Shown: positions 1 to 1,905 of the stretch, in pieces | Numbering within the stretch: the first letter of the stretch is position 1 | How the letters are laid out: every line of letters begins with the position of its first letter | Origin: Escherichia coli | GTDB taxonomy: Bacteria > Pseudomonadota > Gammaproteobacteria > Enterobacterales > Enterobacteriaceae | DNA: 2,337 nt | Reading direction: 5' to 3' (one strand) | Assembly (NCBI RefSeq): GCF_024298765.1 | Contig: NZ_CP101220.1 | Position numbers and translations under genes: made by a program | The notes under the pieces: model-generated | What the model was told of the DNA's origin: nothing | Seen by the model: the letters and a program-made list of their open reading frames with translations, nothing else | Database searches by the model: none

Positions 1-133
1 CGTCGAAAAGTTGCAGCGGAAAATGGGACAGGATGTGTATTCGTCATACCGCGAATACATTCGCTTGCATGAGAATACCTCCTGTCAGGGCAAGCCCCGA
101 CACCCCAAACGTGCAAAATGGAGAATCATTGCG

Positions 134-559
134 ATGACTAAAAATAAGCGTAGCGGTTCAGAAGTACGGCAGAGGACTAAGGTTATCACCCTTAGAGTAA
201 ATAACAGAATCGCAAACGAAATCAGACGGCGAGCGAAGAGCGAAGGGCTGACTATTTCAGAATATATAAGGACAACAAGCTTAAATAATGAAATAAAACA
301 GCGCGTTCCTTCCAGATATTTAGATGAATTAATCCAACTTGGTCGGATGCAGAAGAAATTATTTGATAAAGGGAAGAGACCGAAGGACAAAGAGTATCTG
401 GATGTGATGCATAAAATAATTTCACTTTGTGCTGAAATGAAAGAAGTAACACAGCGAATTTCTGATATATATAAAAAAATGGATTTAATAAAAGAAGAAA
501 TAAAAGCAATAAAAAAAATACATAAAAATAAATACCCAGGTTCCAACTTATTTAATTGA
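134..559 (+). CDS. mobC: MobC-family ribbon-helix-helix relaxosome accessory (plasmid mobilization) protein, 141 aa from ATG 134; same frame is open to window start (alternative starts TTG 11, ATG 23)
   Basis: ORF-track frame 11..559. GGAGA at 120-124 sits 9 nt before ATG 134. Translation contains RTKVITLRVNNRIANEIRRRAKSEGLTISEYIRTTSL, matching the MobC-type RHH pattern (basic N-terminus, beta-strand, then helices with a G-L-[ST]-x-S-E-Y-[IL]-R motif), followed by a Lys/Glu-rich probable coiled-coil tail. Family assignment is from motif recall, not a search. Confidence 0.55.
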   Translation: MTKNKRSGSEVRQRTKVITLRVNNRIANEIRRRAKSEGLTISEYIRTTSLNNEIKQRVPSRYLDELIQLGRMQKKLFDKGKRPKDKEYLDVMHKIISLCAEMKEVTQRISDIYKKMDLIKEEIKAIKKIHKNKYPGSNLFN

Positions 560-567
560 GCAGAACA

Positions 568-595
568 TAGGTCTTCATAAAAATTTAAAGACCTA
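568..595. terminator. Perfect 8-bp inverted repeat TAGGTCTT-N12-AAGACCTA between the convergent mobC-like and rep-like genes; possible bidirectional terminator or protein-binding site
   Basis: Arms 568-575 and 588-595, loop 576-587. Sits in the 89-bp gap between the two convergent stop codons. No strong U-tract on either side, so terminator function is uncertain. Confidence 0.25.
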
Positions 596-648
596 TAATA
601 GAATTAGCGACATTTTGTTTTATCGAAATCTTTTACAATCATAAGAAA

Positions 649-1068
649 TTAATCCGTTTTTTTCGGGGCTATCGTCACTGTTGAATCAATCCCTTCATTA
701 CTGTAAGTTGTTGTCCATACTATCTTTTGTACTTTCGCCCAATCAACTTTAACTGCGTATTTTTTATTAACCAAAAATTCATTTCTGGCTATTCTAGAAA
801 TTAAACATGACTCAATCAGTTGAGACACATTATTATTAAATGTTTGTGGTTTAATTGAATGTTCTGATAAAAACTTTTCTTTGGTTCTTGGTCCAAATGA
901 AACAACATTATCAGTATTCATATTAGCAAGCATGAACGTAAAAATTTTGTATTGCGTTGCTGATAGCCCTTTAACACGGCATAAATCACGGATATACAGC
1001 TTCACGAACTCCGGCTCTTCCAAAATTACGCCAGTTTTTTGATCTAAAAATTTCGCTCCCATTCTCAC
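649..1068 (-). CDS. Small winged-helix-like DNA-binding protein (139 aa); putative iteron-binding replication initiator or copy-control/origin-binding protein
   Basis: ORF-track ORF 649..1068 (-). SD-like GAGGTGAGA lies just upstream of the start on the minus strand; a second in-frame ATG at 1062 is a possible alternative start. Start codon is about 100 bp from the phased iteron array. Sequence pattern (LSATQYKIFTFMLANM ... FNNNVSQLIESCLISRIARNEF) resembles helix-turn-helix plus wing seen in Rep-initiator N-terminal domains. Function inferred from context; protein is short for a classical Rep. Confidence 0.5.
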   Translation of the reverse strand: MRMGAKFLDQKTGVILEEPEFVKLYIRDLCRVKGLSATQYKIFTFMLANMNTDNVVSFGPRTKEKFLSEHSIKPQTFNNNVSQLIESCLISRIARNEFLVNKKYAVKVDWAKVQKIVWTTTYSNEGIDSTVTIAPKKTD

Positions 1069-1091
1069 CTCGCAGGTAATTTAGTTACCGT

Positions 1092-1120
1092 TTTATCGGT
1101 ATCTTATGTATGTTCCACAA
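1092..1120 (-). promoter_or_regulatory. Candidate sigma70-type promoter for the rep-like gene (minus strand -35 TTGTGG at 1115-1120, 17-bp spacer, -10 GATAAA at 1092-1097)
   Basis: Hexamers read on the minus strand; both are imperfect. Location between the iterons/dyads and the start codon fits an autoregulated rep promoter. Weak. Confidence 0.2.
1111..1119 (+). promoter_or_regulatory. DnaA-box-like 9-mer TGTTCCACA (two mismatches to TTATCCACA)
   Basis: Sequence match only. Position next to iterons is typical for iteron-type origins. A degenerate 9-mer like this can occur by chance. Confidence 0.2.
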
Positions 1121-1163
1121 CCGAGTAAATACTTTTTTTCCGGTATTTGATTAGCAACAAAAA

Positions 1164-1267
1164 CAGTATTCCGGTATTTGAAATACCGCTGAGCGGTATT
1201 TCAACCTCCGCTCAGCGGTAAAAACTTTCCCGCTGAGCGGTATATCTATTCCCGCTGAGCGGTATTT
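1164..1267. repeat. Iteron array: five direct repeats in exact 22-bp phase; four full copies of CCGCTGAGCGGTAT(T/A) starting at 1186, 1208, 1230, 1252, plus a degenerate leading copy carrying CGGTATTT at 1172
   Basis: Direct reading: CCGCTGAGCGGTATTT 1186-1201; CCGCTCAGCGGTAA 1208-1221; CCGCTGAGCGGTATAT 1230-1245; CCGCTGAGCGGTATTT 1252-1267. Start-to-start spacing is exactly 22 bp three times. The CGGTAT core recurs at 1172, 1194, 1216, 1238, 1260. The left half CCGCT-N-AGCGG is itself a dyad. Confidence 0.75.
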
Positions 1268-1363
1268 AGTTTGCCTCTAGGCCTTGTCACACCTGATTTT
1301 CCTATCTGTCTGTGAATCTATCTTAGATCTCGTGCGTAAGTGCACTATGCCAATACTGGTTCC

Positions 1364-1430
1364 CTTCCGCTTCCTCGCCCACTCGCGAGCCTAGCGGCTC
1401 GGTCGCTGGGGCTGCGGCGAGCGGTGCCAC
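1364..1430 (+). other. ColE1/pMB1-type origin-flanking conserved segment, probably a PriA-dependent primosome assembly site (n'-pas / single-strand initiation signal)
   Basis: Window CTTCCGCTTCCTCGCCCACT...GCTCGGTCG...CTGCGGCGAGCGGT versus remembered pBR322/pUC CTTCCGCTTCCTCGCTCACTGACTCGCTGCGCTCGGTCGTTCGGCTGCGGCGAGCGGTATCAGC. Exact blocks of 15 nt (1364-1378) and 14 nt (1412-1425) are shared. Contains hairpin CGAGCC-tagc-GGCTCG (1386-1401). Assignment of this pBR322 region to the pas is from memory. Confidence 0.55.
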
Positions 1431-1905
1431 CTCTCGCATATCGTTGACGATCCCGATTTGATCTCAGGCGATCGAGTCGCTGGCCACCGGTTAAACGCGC
1501 TCAAAGCCTCCCAGACGCACAAAACGCGGGTTAAATGCCCGTCAGGGCATGGAAGGCGCGAAAAACGCTTACAGAGGTTTTCAGAAGGTTAGGCGCGCCG
1601 ATACCCCTAACCAGGGGCTTTCAGGTCGCTAGGAACCGCGCCAGCCCCCTGCAAGGCCCATTTGCACGGAACAGACAGCCACTCGGTTGGTAGGTGGTCG
1701 TAGACCGTCGGTGTTACAGCGATGGGGGTCTGGGGTTCTCCCCAGACGGTTTCCGGTTGCGCTCAAGGCGCTGCCGGAACCGTGGCGGCTTCGATGGTGA
1801 AGGGTGAGCGCGTTTCCAAGAGGTTTTCCAGGCAAGCTATGACTGAACTGAACAGATTGAACGAGGAGGAAACGCGCTCAGACGCTTTGTAGCGCGCTTT
1901 TCTGT
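1431..1905. other. GC-rich, ORF-free, hairpin-dense segment; candidate ColE1-like RNA-primed origin/regulatory RNA region (RNA II preprimer and antisense RNA I analog), or another structured noncoding RNA
   Basis: Sharp rise in GC relative to flanking AT-rich genes. Only ORF is a 68-aa minus-strand Arg/Pro/Gly-rich one typical of GC-rich noncoding DNA. Hairpins seen: ATGCCC-gtca-GGGCAT (1535-1550), CCCCT-aacc-AGGGG (1604-1617), 8-bp stem 1728-1735/1740-1747 with loop TTCT, CCGG..GCGC-tcaag-GCGC..CCGG (1753-1777). Order of motifs loosely parallels pUC ori (e.g. GATACC followed by a CCAGG/CCTGG-type hairpin). No clean RNA II-like promoter was found. Confidence 0.35.
1868..1902 (+). terminator. 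Intrinsic-terminator-like hairpin with T-rich tail (stem CGCGCT 1873-1878 / AGCGCG 1891-1896, 12-nt loop, then CTTTTCT)
   Basis: Seen directly on the + strand at the 3' edge of the GC-rich block. Could be the terminator of an RNA I-like antisense RNA or of another + strand transcript. Loop is fairly large and the U-tract is interrupted. Confidence 0.35.

Follow-up and report, generated by a model that had tools for sequence, protein, structure and literature searches.

A palindromic hairpin between the convergent mobA and rep genes of a small Escherichia coli plasmid, probably the weakened terminator of the rep cassette

Between the two convergent genes of a small cryptic Escherichia coli plasmid lies a palindromic hairpin. 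It occupies positions 567–596 of the window, a term which here denotes the whole 2337-bp stretch of DNA that was analysed. Judging from sequence comparisons, this palindrome is probably the 3′ terminator hairpin of the rep cassette, equipped with a weakened U-tract, and would act as a pause or collision site for the convergent transcription of mobA. Behind rep, on the − strand, the predicted RNA folds into a stem of 12 pairs closed by an 8-nt loop (about −13 kcal/mol), with an eroded U-rich tail, UUCUGCUC, after it. We infer that transcription of each gene runs into the hairpin and that its 3′ end forms there, and likewise how efficient termination might be. The hairpin is most likely an ordinary element of a known class, not one of a new kind.

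First, the plasmid and its genes are described. Then, we examine the geometry of the hairpin, its tail, its counterparts in sister plasmids and the substitutions which touch its helix. Finally, known systems and alternative explanations are considered.

The plasmid and its genes

The window is a complete small circular plasmid, and three database records (NZ_CP075712.1, NZ_CP080145.1 and NZ_CP051705.1) are identical to it (100%) over the full length. RefSeq annotates two genes, mobA and one for a 137-aa ‘hypothetical protein’. The features on which the analysis relies are the following, type A being the cassette type of the window.

134–559, + strand: mobA, encoding a 141-aa NikA-like ribbon-helix-helix relaxosome accessory protein; converges on rep.
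554–565, − strand: degenerate U-rich tail of the predicted rep-strand transcript, UUCUGCUCAAUU, with four U in its first 8 nt; overlaps the mobA stop codon.
567–575 and 588–596, both strands: arms of the palindromic hairpin, ATAGGTCTT / AAGACCTAT, a perfect 9 bp enclosing a 12-nt loop (576–587).
597–648, − strand: 3′ untranslated spacer of rep, from the rep stop to the hairpin; type-A sisters carry an additional insertion of about 33 nt.
649–1062, − strand: rep, encoding a short RepL-like initiator of 137 aa, ‘hypothetical’ in RefSeq.
1129–1101, − strand: candidate rep promoter, TTTACT (1129–1124), 17 nt, TAAGAT (1106–1101), read by eye.
1138–1265, no strand assigned: iterons repeated every 22 bp, with cores CCGCTGAGCGGTAT; this array is the presumed origin of the rep cassette and is unrelated in sequence to the hairpin arms.

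The mobA product matches the corresponding profiles of Pfam (PF21983, E = 1.4e-15) and NCBIfam (MobA, 95.6 bits). The plasmid has the gene for the NikA-like accessory protein but none for a relaxase, and is classed as non-mobilizable by MOB-suite. The 137-aa Rep has no match of its own among the Pfam and NCBIfam profiles, so that its RepL affinity is shown via a sister protein: this RepL-annotated protein of a sister plasmid is 24% identical to the window Rep (E = 8e-12) and itself matches Pfam RepL. Furthermore, the protein of plasmid pMB9698_7, which is 98% identical to the window Rep, bears the name RepL in RefSeq. The naming is inconsistent between near-identical plasmids, the window copy being ‘hypothetical’.

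Relatives of Rep are also carried by Arsenophonus plasmids (48–68% amino acid identity). The closest homologue outside E. coli is the Rep of Arsenophonus paPv18 (68%). Directly after this rep homologue lies a strong GC-rich hairpin without a U-tract (L006, 1471–1505; GCAATGCG..CGCATTGC), which precedes a co-directional gene. A literature search on this family of 2.2–3.1 kb RepL/MobA plasmids gave no specific result.

Geometry and folding of the hairpin

The genes converge on a short gap. The mobA stop codon (TGA, 557–559) and the rep stop codon (TAA, 651–649) leave 89 nt between positions 559 and 649. The preliminary description had placed a perfect 8-bp hairpin at 568–595, exactly between the two stops. 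The inverted repeat is indeed there and does lie between the stops; its arms measure 9 bp (567–575/588–596), and it is off-centre, the mobA stop being 7 nt away and the rep stop about 52 nt.

The two strands fold differently. In the + strand RNA, the 9 bp are followed by a C·A mismatch and then by one A–U pair (−8.7 kcal/mol for the hairpin alone). In the − strand RNA this mismatch becomes G·U, and the helix comprises 12 pairs (566–597) with an 8-nt loop and an energy of −13.0 kcal/mol. The stem is AT-rich, with 3 G–C pairs among its 9–12 pairs. A Rho-independent terminator calls for a stable stem-loop directly downstream of a gene, with at least 5 pairs, at least 3 of them G–C, and a loop of 3–8 nt; the hairpin fits this description, with 12 pairs on the − strand and 10 pairs and one mismatch on the + strand.

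How readily could such a hairpin arise by chance? Dinucleotide shuffles of the 89-nt intergenic region produced a perfect hairpin of at least 9 bp with a loop of 3–14 nt in 1.4% of cases, and an equally good perfect hairpin appeared in 13% of whole-plasmid shuffles. Once the iterons are set aside, it is the only perfect hairpin of this kind (at least 9 bp, loop of 3–14 nt) in the window. The intergenic fold has z-scores of −1.65 (+ strand) and −2.96 (− strand), and the hairpin ranks third in stability among the 40-nt local folds of the AT-rich half (1–1140, both strands). Considered by itself, the hairpin exceeds chance only moderately and is suggestive without being compelling; it is the comparative evidence which gives it credibility.

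The tail of the hairpin

It had been noted earlier that the hairpin has no clear U-tract, and the counts agree. Of the 8 nt past the stem, two are U on the + strand (AAUAGAAU) and four on the − strand. A U-tract of at least 5 U in the 8 nt immediately 3′ of the stem is found on neither strand of the window, and a terminator pattern scan of the window calls the hairpin site on neither strand. Unaided intrinsic termination would be inefficient, because the stem has just 3 G–C pairs and the U-tract stays below this threshold.

Close relatives place the rep-strand tail in context. A sister plasmid with a Rep 98% identical to that of the window has this hairpin too, and with the tail TTCTGTTT it passes the terminator pattern scan; the window tail TTCTGCTC is just short of it. 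On the − strand, the sister-plasmid tail at the hairpin reads UUCUGUUU, with 6 U in 8 nt. In L004, the orthologous hairpin is called terminator-like on the − strand, with 12 pairs and a tail, TTCTGTTTCA, which holds the required number of U. Compared with the L004 tail, that of the window shows a T-to-C change and a one-base deletion, giving TTCTGCTCAA, just under the scan threshold. On the + strand, a U-tract is found in none of the type-A plasmids. The type-E analogue, which differs in sequence, is flanked by U-rich tails on either side and is recognised as a terminator by the scan on the + strand.

For the rep transcript, we propose that the element may act both as a weakened Rho-independent terminator and as a structure protecting the 3′ end. 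The hairpin would probably pause the polymerase, terminate part of the rep transcripts and shield the 3′ end of the rep mRNA. Because the element is palindromic and lies 7 nt past the mobA stop, the mobA transcript would carry a weaker hairpin (about −9 kcal/mol) lacking a U-tract, and this form may do no more than make RNA polymerase pause. Readthrough from mobA would yield RNA antisense to rep, and it could be limited by head-on collision with rep polymerases, or by Rho. The suggestion that the hairpin terminates both transcripts is supported mainly for rep, on the − strand.

Also counting against the terminator reading is the distance of about 52 nt to the rep stop, which is looser than in other cassettes. 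This distance is 84 nt in the type-A sisters and 6–18 nt in the other cassette types.

Sister plasmids and cassette exchange

Representatives of every plasmid size class were fetched, and the convergent intergenic region of each was folded. All five cassette types carry a strong hairpin between the convergent genes, with sequences which are unrelated between types.

Type A (window, L004, L005, L014 and L015): ATAGGTCTT...AAGACCTAT
Type B (L002 and L009): AAATAAGGTCTTTTT/AAAAAGACCTTATTT
Type C (L003 and L010): TTAAAACCCGCC...GACGGGTCTTAA
Type D (L007 and L013): TTAGCCGATATATC...GGTATATCGGCTAA
Type E (L011 and L012): ATAAACCCTGCTC...GAGCGGGGTTTAT

Energies range from −8.7 to −20.8 kcal/mol across types A–E (−11 to −21 for types B–E), and the z-scores of the intergenic folds from −1.7 to −7.1. 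Farther RepL/MobV plasmids have hairpins between convergent genes too, some of which are canonical terminators. Conservation of structure and position without conservation of sequence is characteristic of a structural element, a terminator for example, and not of a sequence-specific site. The earlier idea of a terminator gains from this presence in all five types, as well as from the scan calls for the L004 ortholog (− strand) and the type-E analogue (+ strand).

By these comparisons, the type of hairpin tracks the type of Rep and not the mobA lineage. L007, whose mobA is 92% identical to that of the window and whose Rep is only 18% identical, has a type-D hairpin. In L005, mobA is 78% identical, Rep 98% identical, and the hairpin is of type A. 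Nucleotide homology of the backbone to the sisters ends at window position 554–555 and picks up again at 1332–1358, which places the hairpin inside the swapped cassette together with rep and the iterons.

The family as a whole is modular. A backbone consisting of mobA and a GC-rich non-coding segment is common to plasmids of 2.2–3.1 kb; at 78–92% nucleotide identity, it is combined with at least five unrelated rep–iteron cassettes. Between cassette types, Rep proteins share 14–20% amino acid identity, and the exchanged stretch corresponds to window 556–1357 (in comparisons with L002, L003, L007, L011 and others).

Segment 520–720, which contains the hairpin, occurs in 11 small plasmids only and in no chromosome among 5426 E. 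coli genomes. Type-A variants were collected from complete E. coli genomes and PLSDB; they amount to four distinct hairpin sequences, too few for covariation statistics. These variants keep the hairpin although the surrounding 200 nt are only 79–81% identical. When metagenomes were scanned with a 19-mer conserved at the 3′ end of rep, no new type-A variants emerged; the scan returned L021, an unrelated chance match, and L022, a 99.5%-identical copy. L022 (metagenome contig OMAY01003693.1, 5351 nt) contains this copy of window 1–1784 followed by a second backbone copy which is 85–90% identical, and represents a cointegrate between two members of the family or else an artefact of assembly.

Substitutions within the type-A helix

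Aligning the four distinct type-A sequences shows two substitutions that affect the helix. The first is C577 of the window, which is T in the other type-A sequences; the second is a T-to-C change in the right arm of L014 and L015. Both produce A·C or C·A in the + strand RNA and G·U in the − strand RNA, and both break the DNA palindrome. Consequently, all four sequences retain 12 pairs at −12.6 to −13.0 kcal/mol on the − strand, whereas the + strand helix weakens from −12.8 to about −8.8 kcal/mol. The wobble argument for the rep strand is statistically weak, as it involves two substitutions which would each be compatible about 50% of the time by chance, or about 1 in 4 jointly. It nevertheless agrees with the linkage to the rep cassette and with the tail.

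Comparison with known elements

Several features of the hairpin recall Rho-independent terminators. The stem-loop is located downstream of a stop codon and, on the rep strand, has 12 pairs, an 8-nt loop and a pyrimidine- and U-rich tail; its L004 ortholog displays the full pattern of stem, loop and T-run. It differs from this class in the composition of the window tail (4 of 8 U on the − strand, 2 of 8 on the + strand), in its mere 3 G–C pairs and in the lack of a scan call.

A second class is formed by the bidirectional terminators of convergent E. coli genes, which are described as unlike intrinsic terminators (Ju et al. 2019, cited by Wang et al. 2022, bioRxiv 10.1101/2022.10.23.513370). 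In the proposed mechanism, the hairpin serves there as a pause site which positions head-on polymerase collisions, and the collisions prevent readthrough (bioRxiv 10.1101/2022.10.23.513370). Like these terminators, the window element has the short convergent intergenic location (89 nt), and it has a stem-loop in both transcripts without the classical intrinsic appearance. The class was defined on chromosomal genes by transcript-end mapping, whereas the window element is known from sequence. A further difference is the asymmetry of the window hairpin, which is stronger and better tailed on the rep strand.

REP palindromes are reported to be both partial terminators and mRNA stabilisers, and between convergent genes they have been linked with higher expression of both (bioRxiv 10.64898/2026.03.23.713779). 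Like them, the window hairpin is an extragenic palindrome in a 3′ untranslated region, without a U-tract, and such REP locations include those between convergent genes. Unlike them, it is AT-rich with its 3 G–C pairs, its arm motif is unique in the plasmid, and it has no Rfam match. REP hairpins are GC-rich and much stronger. The window hairpin does not belong to a repeated, GC-rich, genome-dispersed family; segment 520–720 lies on no chromosome among the 5426 E. coli genomes. A covariance scan of the whole window with Rfam 15 (E ≤ 1) gave no match overlapping 540–660; its sole match was a spurious miRNA within the iterons.

Alternative explanations

Might the hairpin mainly stabilise the 3′ end of the mRNA, as a processing barrier against 3′-to-5′ exonucleases, with termination occurring further downstream or through Rho? 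We regard this as unlikely to be its main role, with several observations in its favour. Neither strand has more than a weak U-tract, the position of the hairpin is conserved and it travels with rep. In addition, U-tract-less REP palindromes in E. coli 3′ untranslated regions are reported as stabilisers and partial terminators (bioRxiv 10.64898/2026.03.23.713779). However, the sister copies and the analogues of other types have U-rich tails and pass the terminator pattern, which a pure stabiliser would not need. The two roles are not exclusive; they are partly the same idea and inseparable by sequence, and a barrier to 3′ exonucleases is compatible with the terminator reading. For the related proposal of an RNase processing site, nothing was found in support. 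The stem of 9–12 bp is shorter than a typical RNase III substrate.

A functionless chance palindrome in AT-rich intergenic DNA is improbable as well. The 13% of whole-plasmid shuffles which equal the hairpin, the + strand z-score of −1.65 and the AT-rich stem would all fit such an origin. Against it speak the 1.4% obtained by shuffling the intergenic region, the retention of the hairpin in four type-A variants despite surroundings which are 79–81% identical over 200 nt, and the hairpins found at the same position in all four other cassette types.

Further proposals assign the hairpin a part in the mobility of the cassette. It is very unlikely that the hairpin and its counterparts, beyond terminating rep, form a functional left border of a mobile rep–iteron cassette (about 556–1357) which promotes or delimits exchange; this could occur, for example, by replication-fork stalling or template switching at the hairpin. 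We give similarly little credit, and slightly less, to a recombination joint at which rep–iteron cassettes are exchanged between mobA backbones. The breakpoint with all sister types at 554–555 is 12 nt from the hairpin, and types A and B share a 7-nt core (AGGTCTT/AAGACCT) in otherwise unalignable DNA. The hairpins of types C, D and E are unrelated, however, which implies no common crossover site; the breakpoint falls just where the mobA coding sequence ends, and similarity would be expected to break off there in any case; the plasmid has no recombinase gene. A Xer/cer-like site was also sought by eye in the window, with no convincing match. In L002, the sequence GGTGCGCATTA (1359–1369) directly follows the type-B hairpin; it agrees at 10 of 11 bases with the XerC arm of dif. 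No credible XerD arm accompanies it, and the likeness is probably a coincidence.

The preliminary description had also offered a protein-binding site. A double-stranded DNA palindrome that serves as an operator or accessory site and is bound by a dimeric protein, be it Rep, MobA or a host factor, is in our estimation highly improbable, even though the palindrome is a perfect 9 bp and both plasmid proteins are predicted DNA binders. The arm motif ATAGGTCTT, searched with up to one mismatch in the whole plasmid, recurs only as the two arms themselves; it is neither related to the iterons, with their core CCGCTGAGCGGTAT, nor otherwise repeated. MobA stays conserved between plasmids with unrelated hairpins. 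The natural variants lose the symmetry of the DNA and keep the pairing of the − strand RNA, and half-sites separated by 12 nt are far apart for an operator.

A promoter in the right arm, with TATAAT at 594–599 on the + strand driving RNA antisense to the 3′ end of rep, is barely credible and was rejected: the hexamer is perfect in the window (CATAAT in L014 and L015), but it has no acceptable −35 element or TG extension, is not called by the promoter scan and is absent from the other cassette types. Known countertranscripts of plasmids are directed at the rep 5′ leader and not at the 3′ end.

A role in cruciform extrusion or as a single-strand origin is unlikely as well. The DNA-level fold of the hairpin reaches just −5.9 kcal/mol with a 12-nt loop, and so weak a fold makes either function improbable. 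Moreover, the 22-bp iterons argue for theta over rolling-circle replication.

Other elements of the plasmid

Upstream of rep, the candidate promoter given above is conserved in the type-A sisters. It was not called by the promoter scan of the window, and its assignment is inference only. A palindrome, TACCGATAAAACGGTA (1101–1086), follows it; lying just downstream of the candidate promoter, this palindrome (TACCGTTTTATCGGTA when read as 1086–1101) is probably an operator for Rep autoregulation. Each iteron core is itself palindromic, CCGCTGAGCGG.

Upstream of mobA (window 27–123) lie the local folds of highest stability in the AT-rich half. They include TGTATTCG/CGAATACA at 36–59 and GACAGGATGT/ACCTCCTGTC at 27–86, and may represent oriT or an operator for MobA.

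The non-coding segment 1330–1790 is GC-rich (56–61% GC, versus about 30% in the gene half) and shares 83–89% identity with E. coli plasmids of about 1.43–1.55 kb. Over 1000 plasmid records typed Col(MG828) contain parts of it. Bases 1365–1430 resemble the primosome-assembly region beside the ColE1/pBR322 origin; the Rfam scan of the whole window found no RNAI. Further along, a perfect 13-bp inverted repeat (TGAGCGCGTTTCC / GGAAACGCGCTCA, 1805–1817 / 1868–1880) has 50 nt between its arms, with AGCGCGCTTTTCT behind it, and has the look of a terminator or a structured RNA belonging to the conserved backbone.

Implications for the plasmid family

Under the terminator reading, the rep transcription unit would have its 3′ limit at the hairpin in the widespread and barely studied enterobacterial RepL/MobA plasmids of 2.2–3.1 kb. 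This terminator hairpin would be inherited along with the exchangeable rep–iteron cassette. Beyond annotation, the significance is slight. If tested, the natural variants (tail UUCUGCUC versus UUCUGUUU; a perfect versus a mismatched + strand stem) would provide a small model for the strength of U-tract and stem needed between convergent genes, and for the question of whether convergent transcription compensates for a weak U-tract.
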